Made by a program: the position numbers and the translations under genes. A stretch of DNA of 64,000 bases from assembly GCA_944392175.1 (NCBI GenBank), contig CALXVT010000004.1, positions 10,016 through 74,015 of the forward strand. The letters run 5' to 3'. The stretch is from an uncultured Clostridia bacterium (GTDB taxonomy: Bacteria > Bacillota > Clostridia > TANB77 > CAG-508). Below the pieces are notes generated by a model, which was not told where the DNA came from, ran no database searches, and worked only from the letters and a program-made list of their open reading frames with translations. Shown here in pieces: positions 16,396-56,253 of this stretch; position 1 is the stretch's first letter; every line of letters begins with the position of its first letter.

Positions 16396-16399
16396 TATT

Positions 16400-21691: not shown

Positions 21692-21701
21692 TAAAATTTA
21701 A

Positions 21702-21732: not shown

Positions 21733-21823
21733 AAAATATATTAGAAAGCTACAAACCTACGGAAAATCCGGCTTTTAGGATTAAAATTTTAAAATAATTT
21801 AATGCTAAAAAAATAAACAAAAA

Positions 21824-21865
21824 TGTAATAAAAAAATAATAAAAGCGCCAAAAATAACATCCGTA
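21824..21865 (+). promoter_or_regulatory. shared adhesin-locus motif
   Basis: TGTAATAAAA (21824) and TAAAAGCGCCAAAAATAACATCCGTA (21840-21865). Confidence 0.5.
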
Positions 21866-21961
21866 AAGACATAAAAAACATACCTAAATACAGCTATTTA
21901 CTAGACAAAAATAAATTTGTAAAATAATAAAAGGTAAAAATGGATATAAGGAGAGTAAAGC

Positions 21962-26914: not shown

Positions 26915-26917
26915 GAA

Positions 26918-29900: not shown

Positions 29901-31156
29901 CCGATACAGCCTTAATGTCTATGCAAATAGAATATTTAGGTGAAGAAGAAGAGGATTATGATGTAAATAATGTTGATTTTGGTATAATAGAAAGACCAAG
30001 AACAAAGATTACTTTGGTAAAAAATGTAGAACGTGTTAAATTAAGTGCAGTAGATGGAAGTACAATATTTGATGCAAATGATACAGCTCCAGGTTTAACA
30101 TGGCAGAAAAATAAATATAATACAAATTCTAGAGAATTAGAAGCAAAAGGATTTGTGCAAGGAACTGTTGATGAAAACTTACTATATGGTTCTACAGCTC
30201 AGGTTACATATACATTTACAATAATAAATGATAGTGAAATTGATTATAATGATTTAGGTTATTATGAAAGAGGCGAAAAGCCAGAAGATGAAAAATTAAA
30301 TAAAATAAATACAAATAAAATGATTGACTACATTCCAAATACTTTTAAATATATAAAAGAAACATCTGATGCTCAAGGAGAGATTATAATAAGTGAATAT
30401 TCTGAAATACCTGATAATGCAGTTGGAATAACAAAACCACAAGATGAAACTTTATGGCAGGTAAAAAAGAATATTGTAGAAGGAATAACTCTAGACGCAA
30501 ACGAATACAGAATTAGTGGAAATGAATTATTAAAACAAAAAGTATTTGAAGATGTAAATAATAATATAGATACAGTAATTCAATTCCCAGGAACGAGTAA
30601 TTATCCGTCAGAAATTACAAGTTTAATAAATTCTGATCCAACACAATCAAAAGGATTGATAGCTCCAAATGGAGAAATAAAACTTAAAAATGCATTAACA
30701 ATTACTAGAGTAATTTCAAAAGATGGAGATTTAGAGGTAAAAGAAGGAGAACCAGAACAAAATGTTGCAGAAATAATTCAATTTACAATAGATAATGGTA
30801 GAAGACCATATTACGAATCAGAAAAAGACATAGATGATATTACAGGAGATACAGAATCTGGTGGTGGAAGCGGAGATAGCGAAGATGAAGATGATCCAAC
30901 AAAATTTGATAGTGTACATACTGTTACTACAGAGACAGGAGAAATCATACCAGTAGTTACAGAAACACCAGGTAATGCAAATCCAATGGATCCAAAGACA
31001 TGGTTTGAAATAGATACAGCTATTTCTGAAGAGGTACAATTTATACCGCCATTTGGTAATAATAAAAAAGCTGAGTTAATAATTATAATAGTTATAGCAC
31101 TTGGTGTTTTGGGAATAGGTATATATATTATTAAGAAAAAAGTTTTATTAAAATAA
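26918..31156 (+). CDS. giant surface protein B' (paralogue of B, with a SpaA-like domain)
   Basis: C-terminal ~1000 aa colinear with B (FDLNLRKDL..VEL.INGK.HTY.YPGG.LPLDV, ETPGNANPMDP.TWFE.DTA.SEEV); N-terminus differs; IPPFG followed by TM and KKKVLLK. Confidence 0.85.
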   Translation: MRLIRRILLIFLFLSIGYLIFNCNKVNAALAQVPGPKYDGDVAYSTSPHLSPNSTGIDIDFMDLVEYNDGKGTPKPYGCIDRKVLAQCGYASHYYSVTSVIGIGSVEITGEAPWINSATGTVKWSKYSDTVYKVGPYKVNFSGSISSIVIDTDGEDATLSNGQKNGNLGVDTITSGTDFYIYIRKGIGIKKVNGVKVSVESKVTSKQLKQYILECYAVSPVGYGHDNRDCANGPTHVQRVEHYQYDSSITTASDSVDLPGALGVIQLQIVKHDKYRPDILVQGAKYELWSGGKLQYSGTTGANGIANIADVLIGDYTIKEVAVPYNYELKGYATWNGTTYNDVTNMNGSLEDDTRIDVYNESYMDLGGKVFIDKPSKKDKKENGYYNSDGDPPDSPLEGITVTLYSSEPNSQPETMFTDKDGNYKFLHKSKAYEYYIKFTYNGQIYEPTTYNVGLNSDSPDRKLRSYATETPSERDNFNNKFAPVDSSHQAPLWTDKTNSEFLIDAYTGDSGLDNLLKFDKDSTSDELLNINLGLLEREKFDLNLRKDLVNVELKINGKEHTYEYPGGELPLDVEIRGTDVKRYEREIARSDLGYSGHDKLEVYITYVIQIQNESQGQITGYVTDLNDYYDMSYLKIESWDENNQTINWTTVGTVSENGKEYNKMHTTDLANVGITDKKYIYIRYQLEDETIRELFDSNTESTEENLAEIAGYRNTYTVAKQDLNGRTMTNAGEVAGLIDIDSTPDNLNPVSSEVQDFIEKSKTDEYQNLSSEEKSNQSREIFEDDADYAPGLRIIPTGPRTISGTVFEDSPIADKLDENERIGDGELTGDDTRRINQVHVELIAVKENTAGEWEVDEDVMNYYESSDGNLVSDVDVRTNTNGEYIVSGYIPGDYIIRFTYGDQECLINPQNDDEMYTGQDYKSTLWFSENYEGENNDWYKDETPRTNDATDNQDRREDVNSYSRTLQYSNAIILDSDKDSSNVAELADKTYMYADTALMSMQIEYLGEEEEDYDVNNVDFGIIERPRTKITLVKNVERVKLSAVDGSTIFDANDTAPGLTWQKNKYNTNSRELEAKGFVQGTVDENLLYGSTAQVTYTFTIINDSEIDYNDLGYYERGEKPEDEKLNKINTNKMIDYIPNTFKYIKETSDAQGEIIISEYSEIPDNAVGITKPQDETLWQVKKNIVEGITLDANEYRISGNELLKQKVFEDVNNNIDTVIQFPGTSNYPSEITSLINSDPTQSKGLIAPNGEIKLKNALTITRVISKDGDLEVKEGEPEQNVAEIIQFTIDNGRRPYYESEKDIDDITGDTESGGGSGDSEDEDDPTKFDSVHTVTTETGEIIPVVTETPGNANPMDPKTWFEIDTAISEEVQFIPPFGNNKKAELIIIIVIALGVLGIGIYIIKKKVLLK

Positions 31157-31235: not shown

Positions 31236-31311
31236 TGATTGTTTTCAGTAAAATACATTTGTGAACTTAAACGGAACACAGTATAAATCAAAAAAAAGGG
31301 GGATTTATAAT

Positions 31312-32265
31312 ATGATAAGGCTATATAATACAGATATAAAAACAAATAAGCTTGAAAGTGTAAGCACATATGAACGTGGTACTTGGATACATATGGTAGA
31401 TCCTTCGGAAGATGAAATAAAAGAAGTTTGCAAAAATGTAAATATTAAAGATGAATTTATTAGATATTCACTAGATAATGAGGAAAAGGCCAGAATTGAC
31501 GTAGAAGATGAAGATAATACAATATTATTTATTATAGATATACCAGTTACAGAAAAGACTCAAAATGGTGGATACATGTATGCAACAATGCCAATCGGTA
31601 TGATTGTAGTAAGAGATGACTTCTTTATAACAGTTTCTTTAAGAGAATGTAGTTTAATAAAAAAGTTTGAAACTGGTAAAGTCAAAGGCTTTTGTACATA
31701 TAAGAAGAGCAGATTTATATTGCAGATGATGTATAATAATTCATCAGAATATTTGGATTACTTAAAGAAGATCAATAAAGAAACAGAAATTGCAGAAAAT
31801 GTATTAAAAAATTCAATGAAAAACAGAGAATTGTTAAAATTACTTAGTTTAGAGAAATCTTTGGTATATATAACTACATCATTAAGATCAAATGAAGCAG
31901 TTATGGAGAGAACTTTAAAAATTAAAAATATTAAATTATATGATGAGGATGAAGATATATTAGAAGATGCTATTATAGAAAATAAGCAAGCTATAGAAAT
32001 GAGTAAAGTTTATAGTGACATTTTAAATGGAACAATGGATGCATATGCTTCAATTATTTCTAATAATCTAAATGGAGTAATGAAATCATTAACTTCAATT
32101 ACAATAATTATTGCAGTACCTACAATGATTGCAAGTTTTTGGGGAATGAATGTAAAGCTACCATTTGAAGGAAATCCACTGGGATTTTGGATAATGATTT
32201 TTATAGCAACATTACTTACAATCATTTCTGTAATATGGTTAAAAAGAAAAGATATGTTAAATTAA
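31312..32265 (+). CDS. corA: CorA-family Mg2+/Co2+ transporter
   Basis: PT.IASFWGMNV (GMN motif) with two C-terminal TMs. The GGGGG SD favours ATG 31312 over GTG 31261. Confidence 0.92.
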   Translation: MIRLYNTDIKTNKLESVSTYERGTWIHMVDPSEDEIKEVCKNVNIKDEFIRYSLDNEEKARIDVEDEDNTILFIIDIPVTEKTQNGGYMYATMPIGMIVVRDDFFITVSLRECSLIKKFETGKVKGFCTYKKSRFILQMMYNNSSEYLDYLKKINKETEIAENVLKNSMKNRELLKLLSLEKSLVYITTSLRSNEAVMERTLKIKNIKLYDEDEDILEDAIIENKQAIEMSKVYSDILNGTMDAYASIISNNLNGVMKSLTSITIIIAVPTMIASFWGMNVKLPFEGNPLGFWIMIFIATLLTIISVIWLKRKDMLN

Positions 32266-34398: not shown

Positions 34399-36552
34399 AT
34401 GAAAAAAATAGAGCAAATTATTGCAGATGAATTAAACATTAAACTAAATCAAGTTGAAAATACAATTAAATTAATTGATGAAGGTAATACAATACCTTTT
34501 ATAGCTAGATATAGAAAAGAGGTCACAGGTGGACTTTCTGATGAAACATTAAGAACATTTAGTGAAAGATTAAATTATTTAAGAAATCTAGAAAAAAGAA
34601 AAGAAGAAGTTACAAAATCTATAGATGAACAAGGTAAATTAACAGAGGAAATTGTAAAGGATTTAGAGAATGCGGTAACTTTAGCAGAAGTAGAAGATAT
34701 ATATAGACCTTATAAACAAAAGAAAAAGACAAGAGCAACAGTGGCAAAAGCAAAAGGATTAGAACCATTAGCAGAGATAATATTTGAACAAAAAGAAACA
34801 AAGAATTTAAAAGAAATTGCAAAAGAGTACATAAATGAGGAGAAGAAAGTAAAAACTGCAGAAGAGGCAATACAAGGTGCTCTAGATATTATTGCAGAAA
34901 ATATTTCGGATAATCCAGAATACAGAAAGATTATAAAGAAAATTGTATATACAGAAGGAATGCTAGAGACAAAAGCAAGTAAGCCAGATGAAAGATCAGC
35001 ATATGAAATGTATTACGAATTTAGTGAAAAGGTTAATAAATTACCAAGTCATAGAATATTGGCAATTAATAGAGGAGAAAAAGAAGATTTCTTAAAAGTT
35101 AAAATAGAAAAAAATGAAGAAAAAATATTAGAAATAATTCAAAAAGATATTATAAAAGGTGAAACACAATTTACTCAATTATTAATAGATACTATATCAG
35201 ATAGTTTTAAAAGATTGATTGAACCATCAATAGATAGAGAAATAAGATCAGATTTAACAGAAAAGGCAGAAGAACAAGCTATTAAAGTATTTGGAAAAAA
35301 TGCAAAACAATTATTACTTGGAGCACCTCTTAAAGGAATTACTGTTATGGGATTTGATCCCGCATATAGAACAGGTTGTAAAATTGCTATAATTGATGAA
35401 ACAGGTAAAGTATTAGATTATACAACAGTATATCCAACAGAACCACAAAATGATGTAGAAGGGGCAGAAAAAGAGTTGGTAAAATTAATTAATAAAGATA
35501 AAGTAGATATGATTGCAATAGGAAATGGAACTGCATCAAGAGAATCTGAAATGTTTGTTTCAGAGATGATAAAAAAATGTGATCATAAAGTACTTTATAC
35601 AATAGTAAGTGAAGCAGGAGCATCTGTATATTCTGCATCTAAACTTGCAACAGAAGAATATCCAGATATAAATGTCTCTATAAGAGGTGCTATATCAATA
35701 GCAAGACGTTTGCAAGATCCACTTGCAGAATTCGTAAAAATAGATCCAAAATCAATTGGTGTAGGACAATATCAACATGATGTAAATCAAAAGAAACTTG
35801 AAGAAAGTCTAGCAGGAGTAGTAGAAGATAGTGTTAATAAAGTTGGAGTTGATGTAAATACTGCAACACCATCACTTCTTTCATATGTTTCTGGAATAAA
35901 TAAGACTATAGCTAAAAATATTGTTAAATATAGAGATGAAAATGGAAAATTAACAGAAAGAAAACAATTATTAAAGGTTCCAAAATTAGGAAAAGTGGCA
36001 TATGAACAATGTGCAGGATTTATTAGAATTCCAGACGGTAAAAATGCACTAGAAAATACTGCAGTTCATCCAGAAAGTTATGAGAGTGCTGAAAAACTTT
36101 TAAATAATTTAGGATATAAAGTTGAAGATTTAAAAGATAAAGATAAGATTAAGGAAATTAGAGGAAAACTTTCTGATGTAAATGTAAAAGAAACAGCAAA
36201 ACAATTAGAAATTGGAGAATTAACTTTAAAAGATATAATTGACGAATTATCTAAGCCAGGAAGAGATCCTAGAGAAGATATGCCAAAACCAATATTAAGG
36301 CAAGATGTGTTAAAATTTGAAGATTTAAAAGAAGGAATGATATTAACAGGAACAGTTAGAAATGTTATAGATTTTGGAGCATTTGTGGATATTGGTGTAA
36401 AACATGATGGACTTGTCCACATATCAGAAATGAGTGAAAAATTTGTTAAAAATCCATCAGATATTGTTTCTGTTGGAGATATTGTAAAAGTAAAAGTTAT
36501 TGGAATTGATAATGAAAGACAAAAAGTAAAATTATCTATGAAAATAGGTTAA
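34399..36552 (+). CDS. tex: Tex-family RNA-binding transcription accessory protein (S1 domain)
   Basis: TIPFIARYRKE, GFDPAYRTGCK, IGVGQYQHD and a C-terminal S1 domain (NVIDFGAFVDIG). Homology favours the start at 34399. Confidence 0.95.
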   Translation: MKKIEQIIADELNIKLNQVENTIKLIDEGNTIPFIARYRKEVTGGLSDETLRTFSERLNYLRNLEKRKEEVTKSIDEQGKLTEEIVKDLENAVTLAEVEDIYRPYKQKKKTRATVAKAKGLEPLAEIIFEQKETKNLKEIAKEYINEEKKVKTAEEAIQGALDIIAENISDNPEYRKIIKKIVYTEGMLETKASKPDERSAYEMYYEFSEKVNKLPSHRILAINRGEKEDFLKVKIEKNEEKILEIIQKDIIKGETQFTQLLIDTISDSFKRLIEPSIDREIRSDLTEKAEEQAIKVFGKNAKQLLLGAPLKGITVMGFDPAYRTGCKIAIIDETGKVLDYTTVYPTEPQNDVEGAEKELVKLINKDKVDMIAIGNGTASRESEMFVSEMIKKCDHKVLYTIVSEAGASVYSASKLATEEYPDINVSIRGAISIARRLQDPLAEFVKIDPKSIGVGQYQHDVNQKKLEESLAGVVEDSVNKVGVDVNTATPSLLSYVSGINKTIAKNIVKYRDENGKLTERKQLLKVPKLGKVAYEQCAGFIRIPDGKNALENTAVHPESYESAEKLLNNLGYKVEDLKDKDKIKEIRGKLSDVNVKETAKQLEIGELTLKDIIDELSKPGRDPREDMPKPILRQDVLKFEDLKEGMILTGTVRNVIDFGAFVDIGVKHDGLVHISEMSEKFVKNPSDIVSVGDIVKVKVIGIDNERQKVKLSMKIG

Positions 36553-36580
36553 AAAAAAGCTTCTTATGAAGCTTTTTTTT
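36551..36580. terminator. bidirectional terminator between tex and the DUF975 gene
   Basis: A8-GCTTC-TTAT-GAAGC-T8. Confidence 0.85.
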
Positions 36581-36598
36581 ACATAGAATTTGCCAATA

Positions 36599-37531
36599 TT
36601 AATTATTTTCATCATCTGGCTTTTTTTGTAATTCTGGTATATCTACTATTTCAGCTGTAACATCTTGAGAACCAGATTTTTCTTGAATTGTATTTCCTTT
36701 TGATGCTTCTGATGTTGATACATTTCCTTCAGTCTCTACTGTTTGTGAAGTAGAAACTCCAGCTACATGTTCATAGAATACAACAAGTGCTACATCAACA
36801 TATGGCAACAAGAAAATTTCTGCAACATAGATTGTAACAATATATAAGAAATCAATTCCTATACCTGCAAATATTGCTGGTAAGATTGAAGCTAATAATA
36901 CCCATCCGATAAAAGAAAGTCCTAAACAGAATAATTTACCAGAATTTCCATTCATAAGTTCGCCACTTTTGTTTACGCATTCAAGAGCAGGCATATTAGG
37001 ATTATCTACAGCAATATAAATTGATAATGCATATTTTAAACCTAATACAATAAAGAATCCTGCTGCAACAGCAACTAATATAATTGCTATAATTAAAAAG
37101 AATACTGATGCGCCTGTTACTGATGAACTTAATGAAACTAATCCAACTGCAGAAGTAAATACTGAAATTCCAATTACAATTAGTGCTACTATGTAAAGAA
37201 TTATTGGAACAATCATTTTAAGTAATAATCTTCCAGTAATGCACCAAGATCTACTGAAATTTTCAAAACCTTCTTTTAAGAAATCAACATATCCTACTTC
37301 TTGACCTCTTTTTATTTTCATAAATGTCATAGTAAGACCATATGTTATTGGTGGCATTATTACAAGTTCTCCTATAGATACTAATAAGCCTAATAAAGGT
37401 ATTGCAGTAAATATTCCTATTACAAAGATAATTGCTACATATATTAAAAGTATTAAAGCAGCTTTTCCCCAATTACCTTTTAATGCTTCACGAGCCTTTC
37501 TTCTGGCTTCTGATGCTGTTAAAGTAACCAT
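36599..37531 (-). CDS. DUF975-family membrane protein
   Basis: A..ALKG.WG, F..G...F...., S..LM.G...KLF.L.LSFIGW and PY......FY patterns. Confidence 0.88.
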   Translation of the reverse strand: MVTLTASEARRKAREALKGNWGKAALILLIYVAIIFVIGIFTAIPLLGLLVSIGELVIMPPITYGLTMTFMKIKRGQEVGYVDFLKEGFENFSRSWCITGRLLLKMIVPIILYIVALIVIGISVFTSAVGLVSLSSSVTGASVFFLIIAIILVAVAAGFFIVLGLKYALSIYIAVDNPNMPALECVNKSGELMNGNSGKLFCLGLSFIGWVLLASILPAIFAGIGIDFLYIVTIYVAEIFLLPYVDVALVVFYEHVAGVSTSQTVETEGNVSTSEASKGNTIQEKSGSQDVTAEIVDIPELQKKPDDENN

Positions 37532-37599: not shown

Positions 37600-38628
37600 T
37601 TAAAATTTTTTTTGAATTGCTTCTATAGATGAAAAATCTTTATCTATTATGTCTAAAAATGCAATTCCGATTTCTGGATCAAATTGAGATCCTAAATTTT
37701 TTAATAATTCATCTTTTACAATATTCATATCTAAAGAGTCTCTATAACTTCTTTTAGATGTCATTGCATCAAAGCTGTCACAAACTGCTACAATTCGTGC
37801 AAGATAAGGAATATTATTTCCTGACATTTTATCCGGATAACCATTTCCATCAAATCTTTCATGATGATGTTTTACTATATCTAAAATATTTTTAAACATT
37901 GAAGCATGCTCCAAAATATTATAACCGATTACCGGATGTTCTTTTATTTTATTATATTCTTCATCAGTTAGTTTACCTTCTTTTAAAAGTATACTATCAG
38001 GGATTCCTATTTTTCCAATATCGTGAAATAGTCCGCCAACTCGTAAAGTATCAATATCTTCGTCAGGTAAATTTAATTTTTTACCAAGTAAAACAGAATA
38101 TTCAGAAACTCTGTCAGAATGTCCTTTTGTATATGGATCTTTTGCTTCAACAGTATGACGTAAAATCTCTATACTTTCTAAATAAGCATTTTCTAGTTCA
38201 TGGTTTATATCATTTATTGTTTTCATTTGTTCAACTGATTTTAAACCAGATTCTATTAATAAAAGTAATTGGTCAAATTTATCGCTTTTTTCACAATATC
38301 CTTGAATATCTAGTTTATGAATTGTTTCTAATGGTGGAGCTAAATCTTTATGACCTGTAAGTAATAAAATATACAAATCTTTATTAAATTTACGAATTTC
38401 TTCTACTACTTTATCTCCATGAATAGGTTCCATTATAAAGTCTAATACCATTAAATCAAAATGTTCTTGCTTAACTCTTTCTATAGCTTCTAAAGGAGAA
38501 GTTATTCCAACAAAATCATAACCAGATCGTTTCATAAAAATAGATAAGGAATCTAGAATACCTTGTTCGTCATCTACGGCAATTACTTTAAAACCGGATT
38601 TTTGTGCAGAAACCATATTCTTTCTCAT
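37600..38628 (-). CDS. response regulator with HD-GYP (cyclic-dinucleotide phosphodiesterase) output domain
   Basis: REC domain (VDDE, LD, LTG, EK); HDIGKIG, HHER.DG.GYP and DSFDAMTS.R.YR. GAGG SD favours ATG 38628; the longer track ORF start is implausible. Confidence 0.92.
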   Translation of the reverse strand: MRKNMVSAQKSGFKVIAVDDEQGILDSLSIFMKRSGYDFVGITSPLEAIERVKQEHFDLMVLDFIMEPIHGDKVVEEIRKFNKDLYILLLTGHKDLAPPLETIHKLDIQGYCEKSDKFDQLLLLIESGLKSVEQMKTINDINHELENAYLESIEILRHTVEAKDPYTKGHSDRVSEYSVLLGKKLNLPDEDIDTLRVGGLFHDIGKIGIPDSILLKEGKLTDEEYNKIKEHPVIGYNILEHASMFKNILDIVKHHHERFDGNGYPDKMSGNNIPYLARIVAVCDSFDAMTSKRSYRDSLDMNIVKDELLKNLGSQFDPEIGIAFLDIIDKDFSSIEAIQKKF

Positions 38629-38652
38629 AATAGCGACCTCCTTAATATAAAA

Positions 38653-38681
38653 ATTATATAAATAAAAAAATATAAAAGCAA
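38653..38681 (-). promoter_or_regulatory. sigma-A promoter of the REC/HD-GYP gene
   Basis: TTGCTT-N17-TATAAT on the minus strand. Confidence 0.65.
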
Positions 38682-38721
38682 TAAAAATACTAAAAAAGTA
38701 ATAAAAATGTAAAATACAATT

Positions 38722-38750
38722 AAAAAATCGTAAAATCTGACGATTTTTCC
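38722..38750 (-). terminator. terminator-like hairpin after the histidine kinase, partly homologous to the dispersed repeat
   Basis: Minus strand AAAAATCGT-CAGATTTT-ACGATTTTTT; GGAAAAATCGTCAGATTTT matches 6177-6195 at 18/19. Confidence 0.55.
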
Positions 38751-38776
38751 ATATATAAAAAGAAAGCAGATAAGTT

Positions 38777-40789
38777 TTACTTATCTGTTTTAGGTAAATC
38801 TTTAGGTAATGGAATTGAAATTGTAAATGTAGTTCCATTATTATTAGATTCACATGTTATATTTCCATTAAAGTGAGCTTTTATTGTTGAGTATGATATA
38901 AATAGTCCAAGTCCTGTTCCGTTTTTTCCTTTTGTTGTAATCATTTCTTTAAATAGTTTATCCTGAACTTCTTTACTCATACCTGGTCCATAATCTTTAA
39001 TTTCTATTAGTACATTATTATCTTTAGTTTTTAATGTTAAATCAATTGCTTGATTAGGATTTCCTTCATATGCTTGAATTGAATTTGAAATCATGTTATT
39101 TACAACTTGTACTAAACTATTAACATCACCATTTAGATATACATTTGAAGGGACGTAATTATTAATATTAAGTGTTACTAATGCATTTTTTAATTCATGT
39201 TTCATTAATATATTAATACTTTTTAATAATTCATCCATATAAAAATGTATATTATTATTAGATGAAAAGTTTACAGCTTGTCCTTTAACTGCTGTTATAA
39301 CATCTGACATATATTCTGTATAATTTTTAATTTTTTCTATCCAATCTGTCATATCTTTTGCAATATCATGATGATCTTGTTCTGTTACATCTTTATCTCC
39401 AATAGATGTATCATATTCTTTAACTAGGTCTGATAATCCTTCTGCCGCACCAGAAATTGACATTATAGGTGTTTTTAAATTGTGTGCAATTCCTCCAATT
39501 AATTGACCAAGTGATGCTAAACGCTCTCTTTCCATTAATGTTTCTTGGTTAGATTTAATTGTTTGAATATATTCTTTTGTTTTATCTTGGACTTTATTAA
39601 AAGCAATTGTTAAATCACCAAATTCATCATTTGAGATAACAGGTAATTTTTCGATATATCCTAATTTTGAATTATTATAAATATAGTTTAAACCATTAGT
39701 AACTCTGTTAATATCTGTTGTAATAGAAGTTGAAAAATAATGTAATAATAATCCAACAATTACTAATAAAATACCACAGGTAATTCCTAAAAAGTATATA
39801 GTTTCTATAGAAGAAATGCTATATGAAATTCCAACATAGCAAATTCCTTCTGTAGAATTTAATTTTATAGTGGCACCTTGTGTATCTATTCCATAACTAT
39901 CATAAGTTCTGCCATTGTAATTAGAAGATAATTCTCTAGTATATGCTACTAAAAAATTACTTGGTGCATCACCAGAAACAGTTATAACTTTATCTTCAAA
40001 GATAATAAATCTGGAACTATCTGAACTATATAGTTCTATATTAGATAAAATATCTTTAATTTCATCAACTTCGTATGTTTCGTTAATATCAAAATTATTA
40101 TTTAAACTTGCATTATATAAAGTAAAGAATATATCTTCTTTTTCTTTTACACTTCTAGAATATCCCATAAAAGAAGTAAGAAGAAGGACACTTACAAATA
40201 AAGGCATTATTTGTAAAACTATTTTTTTTCTTAAATTTACACGTATTCCTAAATCAGAACCTTCTTTATATGTACTAGCAAGTATTTCAGCATATATATT
40301 TTTAGAAAATATATATGTGAATGTTGCAAGCAAAAATGCAAGTGAAAGTGTAAGTACAAATATTTTTAATACCATAATTCCATGATGACTACCAGTAAGG
40401 AGAACTACTCCAAGGATTCCTAATGTAGGAAGAAATAATTCGATTATATAAATGATATAAGGTATATTAAAACATTTTTTCCTTATCTTTTCTATAGTAT
40501 TTTTTTCTTTTCTTTTATCTTTATTAGTATACCAATTATCTACATCACGAAGACATAATTTAGTTGATATAAATATAATTAATAATATTACAAAACCAAT
40601 AATGGTTAACTGTTGTGCATAAGAGATATAAGACATTTTTATGTCAAATGGTGTATTAATTGAACCAGGTGCATAATTTAATAATGTTGGTATTAATACT
40701 GCACAAACAAGCAAAAATATAAATGCAATAAAACAATATCTTAATACTATTCTTGACGTAGGTTTTTTAAAAATAAATCTTTTTTTCAT
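38777..40789 (-). CDS. membrane sensor histidine kinase (about 6 TM, HAMP, HisKA, HATPase)
   Basis: Five N-terminal hydrophobic segments, a ~110-aa loop, a sixth TM, DEFGDL..AFN (HAMP), IAHNLKTP (H-box), N-box, D.GPG and GTGLGL. Confidence 0.92.
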   Translation of the reverse strand: MKKRFIFKKPTSRIVLRYCFIAFIFLLVCAVLIPTLLNYAPGSINTPFDIKMSYISYAQQLTIIGFVILLIIFISTKLCLRDVDNWYTNKDKRKEKNTIEKIRKKCFNIPYIIYIIELFLPTLGILGVVLLTGSHHGIMVLKIFVLTLSLAFLLATFTYIFSKNIYAEILASTYKEGSDLGIRVNLRKKIVLQIMPLFVSVLLLTSFMGYSRSVKEKEDIFFTLYNASLNNNFDINETYEVDEIKDILSNIELYSSDSSRFIIFEDKVITVSGDAPSNFLVAYTRELSSNYNGRTYDSYGIDTQGATIKLNSTEGICYVGISYSISSIETIYFLGITCGILLVIVGLLLHYFSTSITTDINRVTNGLNYIYNNSKLGYIEKLPVISNDEFGDLTIAFNKVQDKTKEYIQTIKSNQETLMERERLASLGQLIGGIAHNLKTPIMSISGAAEGLSDLVKEYDTSIGDKDVTEQDHHDIAKDMTDWIEKIKNYTEYMSDVITAVKGQAVNFSSNNNIHFYMDELLKSINILMKHELKNALVTLNINNYVPSNVYLNGDVNSLVQVVNNMISNSIQAYEGNPNQAIDLTLKTKDNNVLIEIKDYGPGMSKEVQDKLFKEMITTKGKNGTGLGLFISYSTIKAHFNGNITCESNNNGTTFTISIPLPKDLPKTDK

Positions 40790-40808
40790 ATAAATTACAT
40801 CCTTTGTA

Positions 40809-43800
40809 CTATATAAATTTTACTTTTTTCATATATTTAAATATTTTAGTTAAATAATCTTTATCTAATTCTGGCCATTTAAAATCTAAAAGATTTAAAT
40901 ATTTTTTTGTAAATTCTGAAGATATATCAACAGAGAAATTATAGTTTAATACTTCGTCAGAATTATCAAAAGATATATCATTAATTATTCCTTTTAATTG
41001 ATTAGAATTTTCACTGCTATTTGCTACTTTTAAAATGTATTCTTTAAAAGTTTCGTCATCCATAGGAGTTATATTATAATTAAAGTCTTTTAAAACATTT
41101 ATAATATCTTTTATATTCACTAAATTATCATTATACAAATGGAATACTTTATTTTCAGCAGTTTGAGTCTCTGCTAATAAAACAATTGCTTTAGCACATA
41201 AATCCACTGGTGTGAATTCTATATGCTGTTCTAAATTTGTATATGATAAATGTTTTAATTCTATTAAAGATTTAATTCTACTATAAAAAGCATTTGCTGT
41301 TATATTCTTTTGGAAAACTCCATCAGAATATCTTCCTGATAAAATTCCTATTCTTAAAACTTCTGCAGTTAAGCCTTTTTCCATAAAAGAGTAAACAACT
41401 TTTTCAGCATCAAATTTACTATTTACATAAACATTTTTTGTATAATGTTGACCAATATATAAATCATTTTCAGTAAATGCTACATTATGGTTATCTTGTT
41501 TTACAAGATAATTACCTGAAACACTGATAGAAGATATATGTATTAAGCGTTTTTTATTTGCATATGCAAAACTTGCGATTCTTCTTGTACCATCAATATT
41601 TGAGTCCTTAAATTGTTCAAAATCACCATAATGTTTAACAATTGCTGCTGTATGAATAATAGTTTTTGTATTAGAAGTTATCATGTCTAGATCTTCTTGT
41701 GACAAATTAAAATTATCATATATAATTTCTCCATTAAAAACATAAATTCTGTCATTAAAATATTCTGAAATATCCTTATTAAAGTAGAATTCGTAACTTT
41801 CTTTTAATCTAGAAAGTGCATGTACTTTACTTGTACCTCTTACAAAACAATAAATCTTTATATTAGTTGTTTCCAAAAGTTCATGTAAAACATGAACTCC
41901 AATAAATCCATTAGCTCCTGTAAGTAAAACATTACCCAAAGTTTTTTGATCTGTACATACTTTAATATTATCTATTTCAGTTTCTGTATGTTTAAATGAT
42001 TCTGGAATTTGGAAATTCATCTCTGTATAATATTCTTCGTGAGTATCGATTCTTTTAGCAAGTCTTTTTATTGTAGGATATCTATAAAAAGTTTGAGTAG
42101 TTAAATTTAAGTTATAGTGCAATAAAGATGTTTGAAGTTCTATTATTCCAAGAGAATCAATTCCCAAAGATAAAAACGGAGTATTAATGTCCAAATTATC
42201 TGTTTTTAAGATTTTTTCTAGTATAGAAGAAATCAATTTTTCAGTATTAGTTTGTGCAAGTTCTATATTAGTATTTGTATTTTCGTCTATTGGAGGTAAT
42301 GCTTTTCTGTTAATTTTTCCATTAGGAGTTAATGGAATTTTATCAATCCTTTTAAAATAAGCAGGAATCATATAATTAGGTAAATATTTAAGTAAAAAAG
42401 ATATTAATTTTGAAGGATTAATTTGTTCATCTGCAACATAATAGCAATATAAATATTTATTGTTTTTATTTGGAATAACGACAGTATGTTTTATTCCTGG
42501 AAAACGAATAATTTTATTTTCTATTTCTTCAACTTCAATTCTATAACCACGGATTTTTACTTGAAAATCTGTTCTTCCTAAATGCACAATATCTCCATCA
42601 GGAGTATAATATGCTAAATCATTTGTATTATATATTTTTTCATTTCCTTTAAATGGTGAAGGAATAAACTTTTCTTCAGTTAAATCCTCTCTTCCTAAAT
42701 AACCATTTGTAACTCCATCTCCACCTATATATAGTTCTCCAGGACAGTAATATGGTAATGGTTTTAAATTTTTATCTAAAATATAACACTGTGTATTTGC
42801 AATAGGTTTACCAACAGAAATAAGATTAGTATTTGTTAAATCTTTTAAAGTTGACCATATTGTAGTTTCTGTTGGCCCATATACATTTATAATGGTAGCA
42901 TTTGAAAGTTCTTTGAATTTTGCAAGTAAGTTTTTAGGTAAAGATTCACCACCAACCAAGATATCTGTTATATTATTTAAAAATTCTAAATTAGTTTCTT
43001 TGCTAAGTAATGCAGAATAACGAGAAGGTGTAGTTTGAATAATATTAACATTATTTTCTAAACAAAGTTTATTTAAAGAAACTACATCATTTTGTTCTTC
43101 TTCATCTGCTAAAACTAGAGTTAATCCATAACATAAAGAACACCATAATTCTAATCCAAAAATATCAAAACAAATAGTTGTTAGAGATACACATACTTTA
43201 TTTGGATTAAAATCAATTGCTTGCTTCATACCTAAAATAAAATTGTGTAAGTTTCTATGTGTAATCATTACACCTTTAGGATTACCAGTAGAACCTGATG
43301 TATAAATAAGATATACTAAAGACTTTGGAGAAATATTCACATTTAAATTTTCTGTATCTCTTATATCTAATTTATAAGTACTATTAAATAAATCTATATT
43401 TATATGGTCATGTTTTACAGGAATATATTCTTCTGTAAGATTATTGGTAACTACTACTTTAGTTTTACTATTTTCTAACATGTAAGTAATTCGTTCTTGT
43501 GGATATTCTGGATCAATAGGCATATAGTTTGCACCACACTTTAGTATAGCAAGTATTGCAATAATTAAATTTGAAGAACGATTTAATATAATTCCAATAG
43601 TATCATTAGGTTTTACATTATGCTTATTCTTTAAGAAATTGGCAAAAATATTTGCAGAACTATTTAATTCTTTATATGTTAAAGATTTCCCATTACTAAC
43701 TAAAGCAATTTTATCAGGTGTATTTTTTACTTGTTTTTCAAATAGACTTATTACATTTGAATTTATGTCATATTCTAAATCAGTTTTATTAAAATCTATT

Positions 43801-45125
43801 AATATTTTTTCTTTTTCTTCAGGTGTAAGAATTTCTATATCTTTTAATAATAAAGCAGAATTATTTAATACTTGATTTATTATATAAATAATTCTATTAT
43901 GCATAAAATTAATATCAGATGATTGATACATATCTGTTTGATAATCATATGCAATATTTAGATTTCCAGTATCATTTAAATCAAATAATTGAATATTCAA
44001 AGGATCTGAACAATTTCCATTAAAAGACCATGTTGTATTATAATTAATGCCTTCTTCATTAGATTGAGTGTTAGTTATTTGATAAGAAATTAGTACATTA
44101 TATAAATTTGGGATTTCTGTATCATTTTCCCTTAAATAATCCAATATTTTAGAATAAGGATATTGCTGATGTCTAAGCATTGATAAAGAATTTTTTCCAA
44201 TTATGCTACAAAATTCAGCAAAAGAAATATTATTATTAATTTCAAATCTAAATGGAGCAGTACTTATGAACATACCACAAGTACGTTTTGCATTAAAATT
44301 ATTTCTATTTAAAATAGGTGTACCAACTACAAAATCTTCAGTTTTACATACTCTACTTAAATAAAGACCAAAGACTGCCATAAAGAAATTAAATTCTGAA
44401 ACTTTGTTATTCTTACAAAAATTACGAATATCATTTATTAATGATTTATCTACAGTAAAAACTATTCTATTAGCTTTGCTAGAGTTTGTTATATTTGTAT
44501 TATTAATTGATTTAGGAATAGTTATAGGTTCTGGTAAAGTCTTAAATAAATTTTCCCAATATTCTTTATCTTTAGTAAATCTATTACTTTCCATATAAGA
44601 TTGTTCAGAATTAATATAATCTAAATAAGTATTCTCATAAGATAATAATGGTAAATTTCTTTTTAGATTAGAATAATTCTTGATTATTTCATTGCAAACA
44701 AGACCCAATGTCCAAGAATCAGAAATTAAGTGATGTATAATTAAAGTAAAAGCTGAAAAACCATTAGGAAACCTAAAAATATAGAAATTAAATAAATTTT
44801 TGTTATAAATATCAAAAGGGATACTAATTTTGTTATTTATATATTCGGAATATTCTTCCTTAGAATTAACATCAACTATAGGTACATCATACTCCATTAC
44901 TTTATAATATTGTTTTGGTTCGTTTTTTTCTAAAGTGATTTTTAAATGAAAACTATAATTATTATTTACTATGTGACAGATAGACTCTTTTAGTAAAGAA
45001 AAATCTGTAACTTCATTTACAAAAGCTGTGCCACAAATAGTATTTAAAGAAGAGTTGTTATAAAACTTTTCCAAATACCAAATATTTTTTTGTGGGTTTG
45101 TCAAATTTAGTAATTTTTCTTCCAT
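40809..45125 (-). CDS. single-module NRPS: condensation - adenylation (Gly code) - PCP - terminal reductase
   Basis: HHLISD (C domain); YTSGSTGNPKG, YGPTE, TGD-like TND, NGK (A domain); GIDSL (PCP serine); TGANGFIG and Y..SK (SDR-type reductase). Confidence 0.92.
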   Translation of the reverse strand: MEEKLLNLTNPQKNIWYLEKFYNNSSLNTICGTAFVNEVTDFSLLKESICHIVNNNYSFHLKITLEKNEPKQYYKVMEYDVPIVDVNSKEEYSEYINNKISIPFDIYNKNLFNFYIFRFPNGFSAFTLIIHHLISDSWTLGLVCNEIIKNYSNLKRNLPLLSYENTYLDYINSEQSYMESNRFTKDKEYWENLFKTLPEPITIPKSINNTNITNSSKANRIVFTVDKSLINDIRNFCKNNKVSEFNFFMAVFGLYLSRVCKTEDFVVGTPILNRNNFNAKRTCGMFISTAPFRFEINNNISFAEFCSIIGKNSLSMLRHQQYPYSKILDYLRENDTEIPNLYNVLISYQITNTQSNEEGINYNTTWSFNGNCSDPLNIQLFDLNDTGNLNIAYDYQTDMYQSSDINFMHNRIIYIINQVLNNSALLLKDIEILTPEEKEKILIDFNKTDLEYDINSNVISLFEKQVKNTPDKIALVSNGKSLTYKELNSSANIFANFLKNKHNVKPNDTIGIILNRSSNLIIAILAILKCGANYMPIDPEYPQERITYMLENSKTKVVVTNNLTEEYIPVKHDHINIDLFNSTYKLDIRDTENLNVNISPKSLVYLIYTSGSTGNPKGVMITHRNLHNFILGMKQAIDFNPNKVCVSLTTICFDIFGLELWCSLCYGLTLVLADEEEQNDVVSLNKLCLENNVNIIQTTPSRYSALLSKETNLEFLNNITDILVGGESLPKNLLAKFKELSNATIINVYGPTETTIWSTLKDLTNTNLISVGKPIANTQCYILDKNLKPLPYYCPGELYIGGDGVTNGYLGREDLTEEKFIPSPFKGNEKIYNTNDLAYYTPDGDIVHLGRTDFQVKIRGYRIEVEEIENKIIRFPGIKHTVVIPNKNNKYLYCYYVADEQINPSKLISFLLKYLPNYMIPAYFKRIDKIPLTPNGKINRKALPPIDENTNTNIELAQTNTEKLISSILEKILKTDNLDINTPFLSLGIDSLGIIELQTSLLHYNLNLTTQTFYRYPTIKRLAKRIDTHEEYYTEMNFQIPESFKHTETEIDNIKVCTDQKTLGNVLLTGANGFIGVHVLHELLETTNIKIYCFVRGTSKVHALSRLKESYEFYFNKDISEYFNDRIYVFNGEIIYDNFNLSQEDLDMITSNTKTIIHTAAIVKHYGDFEQFKDSNIDGTRRIASFAYANKKRLIHISSISVSGNYLVKQDNHNVAFTENDLYIGQHYTKNVYVNSKFDAEKVVYSFMEKGLTAEVLRIGILSGRYSDGVFQKNITANAFYSRIKSLIELKHLSYTNLEQHIEFTPVDLCAKAIVLLAETQTAENKVFHLYNDNLVNIKDIINVLKDFNYNITPMDDETFKEYILKVANSSENSNQLKGIINDISFDNSDEVLNYNFSVDISSEFTKKYLNLLDFKWPELDKDYLTKIFKYMKKVKFI

Positions 45126-45311
45126 GACTGTAATCTCCTTTTATTTTAAAACTATAGTTATTTTTACCTATCTAATTTAGCCTAATTATATATATAAAAT
45201 ATTAAAAATTTCAATAGAAATAAAAAAATAGTTAAGGATAATATGAATAAATGATTAAAAAATCCTCTTTTGGAAAATATAAGAATATAGAGTTTCCAAA
45301 GGAGGTTTTTT

Positions 45312-46439
45312 ATGCATCATTATCACAAAATTAAAGAGAAACATACAAAAAGAAATTTGTTTATTGCATTTTTAATTATCATAACAATAATATTGGTAGC
45401 ATCACTTATAAGATTGTATAATAGAATAGATATTTCAAAAACTAATGAAGAAGTAAAAGTAGAAAGAACTGGAACAAGTGTAACTAGTGTAGAAGAAAAG
45501 GACGAAACCATAGAGAAAATTATAGAAGAAACAAATCATTGTGTAGTAGGAATTTCTAAAATAGAAGAGGTTGGAGATTCAATTTTTTCTGAAGATGCAA
45601 TAGAAAAATTAGGACTTGGAACAGGAATTATAGTCTCAAGTAAAGGATATATAGCAACAAATATGCATGTATCTGGTGATAAATATAGTAATTGCTATGT
45701 AACATTGGAAAATGGAAATACTTATAAAGCAGATGTAGTATGGGCAAATAATACATTAGATTTAAGTATTATCAAAATTAATTTGGAAGGATTAAATTAT
45801 ATTAAATTAGGAGATTCAAGTAACGTTAAAACCGGTCAAACAGTTTATGCAATAGGAAATCCAATAGGATATGAATTTCAAAGAACTGTAACTTCTGGAA
45901 TTATAAGTGCAGAAAGTAGAACATTAAAATTTAAAGAAAATAATAAAGAAGTCTTAATGACAGATTTAATTCAAACAGATGCCACTATAAATCCAGGAAA
46001 TAGTGGAGGACCACTAATAAATACAGATGGAGAAGTAATTGGAATAAATTCTTTAAAGATAGATTCAGCAGAAGGAATTGGATTTGCTGTTCCTATAAAT
46101 ATTATTAAACCAATTATAGAAAAATTTGATAAAACGGGAAAATTTGAAGAACCAACAATTGGAGTTTCTGGGTATGATAAAAATGTTATTCCATATATAG
46201 ATAAAGAGATATCTATAAATAGTGGAGTATATGTAGAAAACATAACCAAAGGTAGTCCGGCAGAACAAAATGGAATAATAAAAGGTGATATAATAATGAA
46301 AATGGATGAAAAAGAAATTAATACAATGAATGAATTAATAGAAAATGTATATTCAAAGAATCCAGATGATGAAATAAGTTTAACAATTAATAGAAGTGGT
46401 TTAACAAAAGTTATAAAATTGAAATTGGGAAGGAAATGA
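45312..46439 (+). CDS. htrA: HtrA/DegP-family serine protease with PDZ domain
   Basis: N-terminal TM, TNMHV, DLSIIK, QTDATINPGNSGGPL, C-terminal PDZ. Confidence 0.92.
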   Translation: MHHYHKIKEKHTKRNLFIAFLIIITIILVASLIRLYNRIDISKTNEEVKVERTGTSVTSVEEKDETIEKIIEETNHCVVGISKIEEVGDSIFSEDAIEKLGLGTGIIVSSKGYIATNMHVSGDKYSNCYVTLENGNTYKADVVWANNTLDLSIIKINLEGLNYIKLGDSSNVKTGQTVYAIGNPIGYEFQRTVTSGIISAESRTLKFKENNKEVLMTDLIQTDATINPGNSGGPLINTDGEVIGINSLKIDSAEGIGFAVPINIIKPIIEKFDKTGKFEEPTIGVSGYDKNVIPYIDKEISINSGVYVENITKGSPAEQNGIIKGDIIMKMDEKEINTMNELIENVYSKNPDDEISLTINRSGLTKVIKLKLGRK

Positions 46440-52434: not shown

Positions 52435-55400
52435 TTGTTAAAAGAAATTAAGCATGAGAAAAGCTCAAGAAAAGACTTTGCAAAAGTTGGCGATTACATC
52501 GATATGCCTAATTTAATCAAAGTGCAAAGAGATTCTTATGAGTGGTTTGTCGAAGAAGGATTGGGAGAAGTTTTAAGAGATATTTCACCAATCATTGACT
52601 ATTCAGGAAATTTAGTTCTAGAATTTTTCGATTATTACATGGAAGACAAAACAAAATATTCTTTAGAAGAAGCTAAAGAAAGAGATGCAACTTATTCTAC
52701 ACGTTTACACGTAAAAGTAAGATTAATAAATCGTGAAACAGGAGAAATAAAAGAGCAAGAAATTTATTTAGGTGATTTCCCATTAATGACAGATAGTGGA
52801 ACATTTATAATAAATGGTGCAGAAAGAGTTGTAGTTAGCCAATTAGTACGTTCACCAGGATGTTACTATGAATTTTCATATGATAAAACAGGTAAAAGAC
52901 TATATACATCAACAGTAATGCCAATTAGAGGTGCTTGGATTGAATATGAAACAGATAGTAATGATGTATTTTATGCACGTGTAGATAGAACTAGAAAAAT
53001 TCCTGTAACAACACTATTAAGAGCTTTAGGTCTTGCAACAGATGACCAAATACTTGACTTCTTTGGAAATGAAGAAAAATTAAAAGTAACATTAGAAAAA
53101 GATCCAATAAAAACACAAGATGAAGCATTAATAGAAATATATAAGAAATTAAGACCAGGAGAACTTCCAACAGTAGATGCAGCAAGAAATCTATTTAACG
53201 GATTATTCTTTGATGCAAGAAGATATGATTTAGCAAAAGTAGGAAGATATAAATATAATAAAAAACTAAGTTTAGCTACAAGAATTGCTGGAAAGATAGC
53301 AGCAACAGACATTGTAAATCCAGAAACTGGAGAAGTATTTGTAGAAAAAGATGAAGTTATTTCAAAAGAAGTAGCAGAAGATATTCAAAATTCTGGAATA
53401 AATGTAGTAGAAGTAAAAGTAGATGATAAACCAGTAAAAGTAATAGGTAATGGAACAGTAAATATTCATAACTTTGTTACTAATGTAGATATTTCAGATT
53501 TACATTTTAAAGAAATGGTTAATTATGAAGTATTAAAAAATATATTAGATAATACAGAGGAAAAAGATTTACATGATGCAATTAAAGCAAGATATGATGA
53601 ATTAGTTCCAAAACATGTTACAACAGAAGATATTTTAGCATCAGTTAACTATTTATTAAACTTAGACCATAAATTAGGAGAAATTGATGATATTGATCAT
53701 TTAGGAAACAGACGTATTCGTTGTGTTGGTGAATTATTACAAAACCAATTTAGAATTGGTTTAACAAGACTTGAAAGAGTTGTTCGTGAAAGAATGACAA
53801 TTCAAGACTTAGATGTTGTAACACCACAAACATTAATTAATACAAAACCAATAACATCAGCAATAAGAGAATTCTTCGGTAGTTCACAATTATCACAATT
53901 CATGGATCAAACAAATCCATTATCAGAACTTACACATAAAAGAAGAATTTCTGCATTAGGACCAGGAGGACTTTCTAGAGAAAGAGCAGGTTTCGAAGTT
54001 CGTGATATTCACTATACACATTATGGAAGACTATGCCCAATAGAATCTCCAGAAGGACCAAACATAGGATTAATTTCAGCACTTTCTTCATTTGCTCAAA
54101 TTAATGAATATGGATTTATCGAAACACCATATAGATTAGTAGATCCAGAAACTCATAGAGTTACAGATAAAGTAGAATATATGAGTGCAGATGTAGAAGA
54201 TGGAAACTATATAGCAGAAGCAGAAGAACCATTAAACGAAGATGGATCATTTGTAAATAAACGTGTAAAAGTTAGATATAGAAACGATATTATAGAAGTA
54301 GACAATACAATGGTAACAGGAATGGATGTATCACCTAAACAATTAGTTTCAATTGGTGCAGCCATGATACCATTCTTAGAGCATGATGATGCAAAACGTG
54401 CTTTAATGGGTGCAAACATGCAACGTCAAGCAGTTCCATTAATAATGCCAGAAGCTCCAATAGTAGGAACAGGTATGGAATATAGAGCAGCAAAAGATTC
54501 AGGAATACTTATTTTGGCAGAAGACGATGGTGTTATAGAAAAAGTTACAGGAGACGCAATCACTGTTAAATATAATAATGGAACAACTAAAACACATAAA
54601 TTAAACAAATTTAAAAGAACAAATGGTGGAACTTGTATTAACCAAAGACCTATTGTTGTAAAAGGTGAAAAGGTTAAGAAAGGTGATGCAATAGCAGATG
54701 GACCAGCAACTAAAAATGGAGAAATGTCACTTGGTAGAAATGTATTAGTAGCATTCTCTACATGGGAAGGATACAACTATGAAGATGCTATTCTTTTAAA
54801 TGAAAGATTAGTAAAAGAAGATGTATTTACTTCAATTCATATAGAAGAATATGACTGCGAATGTCGTGATACAAAATTAGGACCAGAAGAAATTACAAGA
54901 GACATTCCAAATGTTGGTGAAGACAGCTTAAAAGACTTAGACGAAAATGGTATTATAAGAATTGGTGCAGAAGTAAGACCAGGAGATATATTAGTTGGAA
55001 AAGTTACACCAAAAGGTGAAACAGAACTAACAGCAGAAGAAAGATTACTTCGTGCAATCTTTGGAGAAAAAGCTCGTGAAGTAAGAGATACATCTCTTAA
55101 AGTACCACATGGAGAAGCTGGAACAATAGTAGATGTAAAAATATTTACAAGGGATAATTCAGATGAATTAGGACCTGGTGTAAATCAAATTATAAGATGT
55201 TATATAGCAACAAAAAGAAAAATATCAGTTGGAGATAAAATGGCTGGACGTCATGGTAATAAAGGTACAATTTCTAGAATATTACCAGAAGAAGATATGC
55301 CATTTATGCCAGATGGTACACCAGTAGATATTTTACTTAATCCATTAGGTGTTCCTTCTCGTATGAACTTAGGTCAAGTTTTAGAAGTACATTTAGGTTT

Positions 55401-56166: not shown

Positions 56167-56253
56167 ACATAAATTATTGCAGAAAAACTTATACTTAAGG
56201 TGTTTTGCACTTTAAGTATAAGTACCTAAAAAAATAAATCAAGGGGGCAAAAT

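Follow-up and report, generated by a model that had tools for sequence, protein, structure and literature searches.

We analyzed a 64,000-nucleotide stretch of contig CALXVT010000004.1 (positions 10,016 to 74,015 of the forward strand; assembly GCA_944392175.1, an uncultured Clostridia bacterium), hereafter called the window, and found that a single-module nonribosomal peptide synthetase (NRPS) gene with a glycine-type adenylation code forms a conserved pair with the sensor histidine kinase gene directly downstream. The shared inheritance and exchange of the NRPS and the sensor half of this kinase suggest a signal-receptor pair rather than a stand-alone lipid pathway. We tentatively propose, with somewhat less than even confidence, that three genes at this locus form a cassette with which uncultured gut Clostridia make an N-acyl-glycinal, which would be sensed by the adjacent kinase and would set the turnover of cyclic di-GMP (c-di-GMP) through an HD-GYP response regulator. 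The enzyme class and the wider NRPS family are already known. No description of the monomodular glycine-coded branch, of its strict pairing with a narrow sensor-kinase family or of the co-transfer of synthase and sensor was found in the literature searched.

The NRPS gene and the downstream kinase

The features that carry the argument are listed below in window coordinates.

40809..45125, minus strand: NRPS gene, 1438 aa, with condensation (C), adenylation (A), thiolation (T) and reductase (R) domains in the order C-A-T-R in one open reading frame (ORF) (Pfam and NCBIfam)
43800..45113, minus strand: condensation domain, aa 5-442 (Pfam PF00668, E = 9e-77)
42315..43742, minus strand: adenylation domain, aa 462-937, with the glycine-type code DILQLGVIWK (Pfam and alignment to GrsA)
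42048..42233, minus strand: thiolation (peptidyl carrier protein, PCP) domain, aa 965-1026, with the carrier serine Ser991 in LGIDSLG (Pfam PF00550)
40812..41933, minus strand: terminal thioester reductase domain, aa 1065-1438, with TGANGFIG and YVNSK (PF07993, TIGR01746)
38777..40789, minus strand: histidine kinase, 670 aa, HisKA and HATPase_c domains, six predicted transmembrane (TM) helices, starting 19 nt past the NRPS stop codon
39602..40789, minus strand: sensor half of the kinase, aa 1-396, which co-varies and was co-transferred with the NRPS
37600..38628, minus strand: response regulator, 342 aa, receiver (REC) and HD-GYP domains (RpfG-type), with HD, HHE and GYP motifs intact
39603..45263, no strand assigned: near-identical tract of 5,661 bp shared with L001, L032 and L033 (nucleotide comparison)

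A first-pass annotation, made from the sequence alone, had described this interval as a C-A-T-R enzyme with intact motifs. Its coordinates coincide exactly with one minus-strand ORF, the strand itself having been left out, and the architecture was borne out by Pfam: AMP-binding (aa 462-810, E = 2e-84) and AMP-binding_C (aa 867-937) make up the A domain, and NAD_binding_4 (aa 1068-1314, E = 5e-42) lies within the R domain, which NCBIfam TIGR01746 covers over aa 1065-1438. All of the motifs named there were found (FDIFGLE, IIQTTPS, ILVGGE, NVYGPTETTIW, NGK, HHLISD, GIDSL, GANGFIG and YVNSK). What the annotation missed is the conserved coupling of the NRPS to a sensor kinase and an HD-GYP regulator. 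In view of this coupling, the gene more likely belongs to a signal-receptor system than to a lipid pathway that stands alone.

The catalytic motifs are maintained across the family. In the condensation motif HHLISDSW (aa 131-138), H132 and D136 are invariant (n = 23 family members); the first His of HHxxxD is replaced by Asn (NHLIADSW) in 7 of 23 monomodular relatives, and the Gly of HHxxxDG by Ser or Ala in all but one of 21 tallied relatives. The adenylation core motifs A3, A5, A8 and A10 were found as YTSGSTGNPKG, NVYGPTE, GRTDFQVKIRGYRIE and PNGKINR, respectively. Motif A7 is unusual, reading YNTNDLA (aa 832-838; canonical Y[RK]TGDL) with its Asp kept, and is the same in 23/23 relatives. 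The carrier motif LGIDSLG, with its GxDS serine, is likewise kept in 23/23, and both short-chain dehydrogenase/reductase-type motifs of the R domain, GxxGxxG (LTGANGFIG) and YxxxK (YVNSK), are conserved across the clade. Compared with the 83%-identical ortholog in L002, dN/dS was 0.135 (C), 0.091 (A), 0.050 (T) and 0.107 (R); all four domains, the C domain included, are therefore under purifying selection. The best NCBIfam match was AusA (889 bits over the A-T-R part), and MxcG, a C-A-T-R enzyme, matched over the full length with 514 bits.

An AAGGAG Shine-Dalgarno sequence lies 8 nt ahead of the NRPS ATG. One further feature stands upstream.

45185..45214, minus strand: promoter-like TTGAAA-18-TATAAT upstream of the NRPS, a consensus match of a kind that occurs at chance frequency in this AT-rich region (G+C of the window, ~26%)

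Conservation of the NRPS-kinase pair

In every informative locus, meaning one that extends past the NRPS, a homologous kinase gene comes immediately after the NRPS (29/29). In most of these the kinase starts 13-26 nt past the NRPS stop codon, and the regulator is usually present. Relatives at 55-62% NRPS identity show the same order of HtrA, NRPS-kinase-regulator and Tex. Because Tex and ABC-F genes are also syntenic in these relatives, linkage there alone could be plain gene-order conservation. The linkage is nevertheless kept where the outer synteny is lost, in Dehalobacter (L003, L023), in L006, L018 and L019, and also behind dimodular NRPSs.

The association was also examined from the side of the sensor. 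A search of 5.8 billion proteins with the sensor half (aa 1-400) found only 205 homologs. In a reciprocal test, four sensor homologs of 41-49% identity on long contigs were picked, and all four lie 17-117 nt downstream of a C-A-T-R NRPS of ~1435 aa, in four different genomic contexts. The NRPSs ahead of these sensors carry the code DILQ[LM]G[MV][IV].K. The regulator gene is missing from one of the four.

In L042/L043 (contigs with P0270), the pair stands beside rpoB/rpoC, with no REC-HD-GYP gene downstream. The invariant core is the NRPS-kinase pair, not the triad. Nothing relevant that links an NRPS with HD-GYP was found in the literature searched.

The sensor half of the kinase shares its history with the synthase

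The two halves of the kinase were compared separately. The catalytic half is 62-72% identical to that of the window in almost all gut loci. Identity of the sensor half varies with the synthase, being 57-60% where the NRPS is glycine-coded and 29-33% where a monomodular NRPS has another code; behind dimodular NRPSs the sensor half is undetectable, and the kinase there is ~60 residues shorter. Dehalobacter has the most diverged kinase half (51%), and its sensor half (37-40%) is closer to that of the window than the sensor halves of the non-glycine gut loci.

Over 18 monomodular loci, sensor-half distance correlated with A-domain distance (r = 0.95) and with R-domain distance (r = 0.92). These correlations persisted in a partial Mantel test given the kinase half (0.94 for the A domain and 0.88 for the R domain, p = 0.0002). 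The kinase half tracks the C domain instead (r = 0.84).

Exchange of the same block was seen in the near-identical tract. Against L001, an uncultured Clostridia metagenome-assembled genome (MAG) that the window matches, it shows 9 mismatches (99.84% identity), and both flanks drop to ~70-90%. The tract spans the promoter region, the complete NRPS gene and the part of the kinase gene for residues 1-396, stopping short of HisKA. The NRPS and the sensor half are 100% identical as protein, which makes each of the 9 mismatches either synonymous or non-coding. L032 and L033, two independent single-run assemblies, show this mosaic as well, and the window's own flanks recur in seven other contigs (L034-L039). 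An assembly chimera was considered as the source of the tract and rejected, since the mosaic occurs in one MAG and two independent single-run assemblies; its presence in independent assemblies indicates a real exchange and not a chimeric contig. The tract is a recent recombination or transfer block between two lineages that are ~80% identical in its flanks.

Adenylation specificity

To read the specificity code, we aligned A domains to GrsA-PheA with MAFFT. GrsA gave its canonical code DAWTIAAICK in this alignment, which confirms the register. The query code is DILQLGVIWK, at residues 654, 655, 658, 697, 723, 725, 748, 756, 757 and 937, and thus reproduces the pocket that had earlier been read by eye. 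Its identification as a glycine code also held. The glycine-incorporating NcmB of nocamycin has the pocket DILQLGVI, identical to the eight-residue code of the query (PMC5466765), and DILQLGMIWK is a recurrent signature of glycine-activating domains (PMC12283262). The A domain is accordingly predicted to activate glycine.

In the first homolog search, DILQ[LM]G[VML]IWK was present in 23/23 monomodular relatives; remoter monomodular enzymes have other codes, including DIFQMAGIFK, DAFFLGCTFK and DLTKIGEVGK. The exact codes DILQLGVIWK and DILQLGLIWK gave no full-text literature match. Module 2 of LgrA activates glycine. We rejected the LgrA score of 756 bits as support for glycine, because it was summed over two A domains and the LgrA-A2 pocket is different.

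Condensation domain and acyl donor

The C domain lies at the extreme N terminus, from residue 5, with no upstream carrier or docking domain. In domain-wise BLAST it was 42-51% identical (~400 bits) to the N-terminal C1 domains of dimodular C-A-T-C-A-T-R proteins, compared with only ~25% (~110 bits) to their internal C2 domains, and on this comparison it is the ortholog of C1. The subtype was examined with profiles of family C1 (23 sequences) and C2 (9 sequences) against all PDB chains. The C1 profile matched the elongation-type domains TycC6 (187 bits) and BacC (186 bits) and the starter domains RzmA-Cs (128 bits), SrfAA-Cs (120 bits) and CDA-C1 (73 bits). The C domain of TomB was among the PDB matches. 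The C2 profile scored 426 bits with TycC6, 303 with LgrA and 78 with RzmA-Cs, as a plain elongation type. C1 is thus a divergent clade that leans further towards the starter domains than C2 does, but falls outside their group.

No gene for a phosphopantetheinyl transferase, acyl-CoA ligase or acyl carrier protein (ACP) was detected in the 64-kb window when every ORF of 110 aa or more was scanned with Pfam, in agreement with the first-pass annotation as to the first two. Formation of an N-acyl-glycyl thioester followed by reductive release would be the most economical chemistry for this enzyme, because of the position and conservation of the C domain and the family precedent.

We considered the possibility that the C domain is non-acylating, at least in vivo. 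The enzyme would then release free glycinal (aminoacetaldehyde), dimerization and oxidation of which would lead to pyrazine, or would be used twice to give Gly-Gly-H and hence a pyrazinone, and the volatile heterocycle would be the product and possibly the signal. Pyrazines and pyrazinones come from NRPSs that release amino aldehydes, AusA is the best NCBIfam match and AusA-R the second-best solved R domain, and pyrazine and pyrazinone autoinducers have been described in gut bacteria (PMC11480411). The departure of the C domain from the canonical starter type and the lack of nearby acyl donor genes point the same way. However, the catalytic His and Asp are kept in all relatives and the C domain has the low dN/dS given above, whereas a dispensable domain would decay. 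Moreover, A-T-R enzymes that make free amino aldehydes normally have no C domain, and iterative use of one module is rare. We regard a non-acylating C domain as unlikely and retain N-acylation of glycine as the preferred chemistry.

Reductive release

The closest solved structure for the T-R part was 6VTJ, the PCP-R didomain of Mru_0351 from Methanobrevibacter ruminantium (201 bits over 375 residues). The next solved R domains were AusA-R (144 bits), which releases an aldehyde, and MxaA-R (94 bits), which forms an alcohol. How NRPS R domains set two-electron versus four-electron reduction has been stated to be unclear (PMC8024701), and for this reason aldehyde and alcohol cannot be told apart from sequence. 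AusA-R is the nearest R domain with a known product, and the family precedent is also an aldehyde.

The first-pass annotation had offered N-acyl-aminoacetaldehyde or N-acylethanolamine as the product. Its general chemistry, an N-acyl-glycyl thioester with reductive release, stood as the most economical route; the N-acylethanolamine ending did not gain specific support, and as the least supported part of the inference it is speculation. In the stronger form of that idea, four-electron reduction by the R domain would yield an N-acylethanolamine with a long acyl chain, a mimic of the endocannabinoid-like lipids of the host. Alcohols are indeed formed by some terminal R domains (the matches to MxcG and MxaA-R are in keeping with this), and a second reduction is not forbidden by sequence (PMC8024701). 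On the other hand, AusA-R and the sister dimodular family release aldehydes, and glycine-betaine reductase, an A-T-R-R enzyme, needs a second R domain to form its alcohol (PMC11050029). No link between an NRPS and an N-acylethanolamine was found in the literature searched. We consider this outcome very unlikely, and N-acyl-glycinal remains the product favored here.

Relationship to the gut Clostridia NRPS family

Close relatives of the gene are proteins from MAGs and metagenomes of human (Hadza), rabbit, goat, sheep and other guts. By length, the homologs form two classes, C-A-T-R proteins of ~1438 aa and C-A-T-C-A-T-R proteins of ~2470 aa. R domains are 59-67% identical within the monomodular group and 35-41% identical to dimodular R domains; the A domain of the query reaches 62% identity with dimodular A domains. 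By homology and gut origin, the gene can be assigned to the gut Clostridia family of reductase-terminated NRPSs. This family is reported to comprise 47 biosynthetic gene clusters that are widespread in stool and of which some give peptide aldehydes (PMC12282076). Its reported products include N-acylated dipeptide aldehydes such as ruminopeptin (PMC8518294), and the aldehydes of dimodular members inhibit cathepsins (PMC12282076, PMC8518294).

The present gene resembles the gut peptide-aldehyde family (Guo et al. 2017 Cell; RupA, Schneider & Balskus 2018) in habitat, host class and the orthologous N-terminal C domain, and the dimodular loci also have a homologous kinase and a REC-HD-GYP gene downstream. 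It differs in that the dimodular C-A-T-C-A-T-R arrangement that is the hallmark of that family is replaced by one module, so that the product would be a single residue and not a dipeptide. Its R domain forms a separate clade, and its kinase sensor is unrelated to that of the dimodular loci. Mru_0351 (PDB 6VTJ/6VTZ) shares the gut or rumen source and likewise has no known product (PMC8024701); unlike the monomodular gene here, it is part of a four-module archaeal NRPS.

Other reductase-terminated enzymes provide partial parallels. The single-module C-A-T-R enzymes NpsB (tilivalline), TomB (tomaymycin) and MxcG (myxochelin) release N-acyl amino aldehydes; they have the same domain order as the gene described here and condense an acyl or aryl group on one carrier-bound amino acid before reductive release. 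In those systems a dedicated A-T aryl carrier partner supplies the donor, whereas none is present in the window, and they activate Pro or Lys, not Gly, and are not known to be linked to a sensor kinase. AusA (A-T-C-A-T-R) and PvfC (A-T-R) share a terminal aldehyde-releasing R domain and a proposed signaling role. Both differ in having no N-terminal C domain, in giving non-acylated heterocycles and in having no adjoining cognate kinase.

Kinase, regulator and flanking genes

The topology of the kinase was derived from hydropathy analysis and an AlphaFold model (pLDDT 84.7, pTM 0.77). An extracytoplasmic alpha/beta domain of 122 aa (aa 209-330) is predicted between TM5 and TM6, and the first outer loop is highly conserved. 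A Foldseek search of the sensor model against the PDB gave no match at E <= 0.001. The best fold match was a Bacillus subtilis domain of unknown function (target-normalized TM-score 0.52), followed by weak PDC/PAS-like sensor matches.

The regulator is separated from the kinase by a 148-nt spacer. Its mechanically called ORF (37600-38853, minus strand) begins at a GTG that overlaps the kinase gene; translation almost certainly starts instead at the ATG at 38628, which is preceded by an AAGGAGG site. The kinase stop codon coincides with a 9-bp hairpin and a T-run after it (38767-38787), which could reduce transcription on into the regulator. Regulators of the REC-HD-GYP (RpfG) family act as c-di-GMP phosphodiesterases under the control of their cognate kinases, and in clostridia this type predominates (bioRxiv 10.1101/2021.11.05.467447). 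Because no DNA-binding domain is present, the regulator cannot be a simple transcriptional switch for the NRPS. No c-di-GMP riboswitch or other RNA element was detected at the locus at Rfam gathering thresholds.

Two flanking genes are of uncertain membership in the system.

36599..37531, minus strand: DUF975 membrane protein, 3' of the regulator (Pfam scan)
36550-36581: strong hairpin terminator after the DUF975 gene
45312..46439, plus strand: HtrA-like serine protease (Trypsin_2 and PDZ), divergent from the NRPS, a conserved neighbor in gut lineages

The HtrA-like gene divergently adjoins the NRPS in most gut lineages (e.g. L025-L031, L040), and is not beside it in L042, L044 and L046 (three of the four independent contexts) or in Dehalobacter. 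This neighbor bears on a further explanation, in which the product would be a secreted electrophile or protease inhibitor directed against host or competitor proteases, the HtrA-like protease would perhaps serve self-protection, and the two-component system would be only an environmental timer. Besides the frequent presence of the HtrA-like gene, this explanation draws on the clear homology to the dimodular family, whose aldehydes inhibit cathepsins (PMC12282076, PMC8518294). However, an aldehyde of a single N-acylated glycine would offer proteases little P1/P2 recognition, the HtrA-like gene is absent from the loci just named, and the regulator has no DNA-binding output through which NRPS transcription could be switched directly. 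Co-variation with the A domain and joint transfer with the synthase would also be surprising for an unrelated environmental sensor. We judge this explanation rather unlikely, and continue to favor a product that is sensed by the kinase.

The remainder of the window was also surveyed. It begins with a three-tRNA cluster plus a fourth tRNA gene (1427-1701 and 6054-6126, plus strand), and rpoB and rpoC lie at 52435-59787; the NRPS is therefore placed in the core chromosome, with no obvious island. Genes for a LexA-like repressor with helix-turn-helix and S24 domains (3423-3998, minus strand) and a HicB-like antitoxin (6489-6881, minus strand) are also present. Four tandem giant ORFs of 1649, 1763, 1650 and 1412 aa (11446-31156, plus strand) contain SdrD_B, SpaA, DUF11, DUF7927 and CarboxypepD_reg-like domains and resemble a surface adhesin or pilin-like cluster, which is followed by a CorA gene (31261-32265). 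An Rfam match to IRE_II at 60858-60888 (plus strand; 32.3 bits against a gathering threshold of 30 bits, E = 0.026) is almost certainly due to chance in AT-rich bacterial DNA.

Discussion

In the mechanism that we propose, the A domain would load glycine onto the T domain, and the N-terminal C domain would acylate the glycyl amine with an acyl-CoA or acyl-ACP drawn from primary metabolism. Reductive release by the R domain would then give N-acyl-glycinal; a second reduction, to N-acylethanolamine, is conceivable but has nothing in its support. The released small molecule would be sensed outside the cell by the adjacent 6-TM kinase, which would phosphorylate the RpfG-type regulator and thereby alter c-di-GMP hydrolysis. 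This would make the cassette an autoinducer-type pair of synthase and receptor, in which the synthase and the sensor half stay linked and move as a single block. Domain content, glycine-type code, operon-like gene spacing, conserved linkage, co-variation and the shared near-identical tract are direct observations; the acyl donor, the product and the sensing step are extrapolated from them. The enzymology in this scheme rests on domain logic and family precedent, and the biology on comparative genomics.

Several points weigh against this proposal. The regulator is missing from the L042 lineage. The C domain does not fall clearly within the canonical starter clade, and no gene for an acyl-activating enzyme or carrier protein is nearby in the 64-kb window. 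Several family members with an N-terminal C domain, when expressed in heterologous hosts, reportedly gave pyrazinones that were not acylated. None of the monomodular members has an observed product, and every relative found comes from an uncultured MAG. The sensor model has no significant structural match that points to a ligand class, and the kinase could have a different ligand and serve only to regulate the NRPS, or be regulated along with it. Finally, the A, T and R domains and the sensor are encoded by contiguous DNA, and their shared history may therefore reflect recombination tracts alone, without functional coupling. The probability not assigned to this proposal or to the three alternatives above falls to arrangements of other kinds, such as delivery of the donor in trans by another carrier protein.

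The logic of the proposed system resembles that of Rpf/DSF (RpfF, RpfC, RpfG), in which a synthase, a membrane kinase and an RpfG-family REC-HD-GYP regulator are clustered and output runs through c-di-GMP turnover rather than DNA binding (bioRxiv 10.1101/2021.11.05.467447). The two differ in that the Rpf synthase is a crotonase and the one here an NRPS, and in that the kinase here is not a hybrid and has a non-homologous sensor. The hosts here are Gram-positive anaerobes, and sensing by the kinase is our inference.

In its pattern of variation, the cassette resembles the comQXP and agr pherotype loci, where a synthase and a sensor half are also exchanged as one block. In comQXP, the N-terminal membrane domain of ComP is far more variable than the cytoplasmic part and varies with the signal genes (PMC4008528, PMC4408185). 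As in ComQXPA and agr, the signal gene and the sensor half vary together here while the cytoplasmic kinase half is conserved, and a block of synthase and sensor half is common to diverged lineages. Those systems differ in that their signal is a modified ribosomal peptide, in place of the nonribosomal small molecule proposed here, and in that their regulator is a transcription factor, in place of an enzyme (HD-GYP). A bolder version of our proposal, which we consider quite unlikely as it stands, is that an N-acyl-glycine-derived aldehyde or ethanolamide is a non-peptide quorum signal, read out by a 6-TM kinase and an HD-GYP protein and subject to interspecies pherotype swapping; in its long-chain N-acylethanolamine form, such a signal would also mimic host endocannabinoid-like lipids.

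Reductase-terminated NRPSs of gut Clostridia are among the most widespread biosynthetic families in human stool and have so far been seen as a source of protease-inhibiting dipeptide aldehydes. The monomodular glycine-coded branch is confined to uncultured lineages, and this branch, like the dimodular genes, is firmly tied to a sensor kinase and a c-di-GMP phosphodiesterase. The 5.66-kb tract documents that the synthase-sensor unit has recently passed between diverged gut lineages. Should the NRPS product be what the kinase reads, the metabolites of this family would be bacterial signals first of all. The locus also provides a directly testable pair of one enzyme and one receptor, through which a metabolite class and a sensor family of organisms still beyond cultivation could be de-orphaned.

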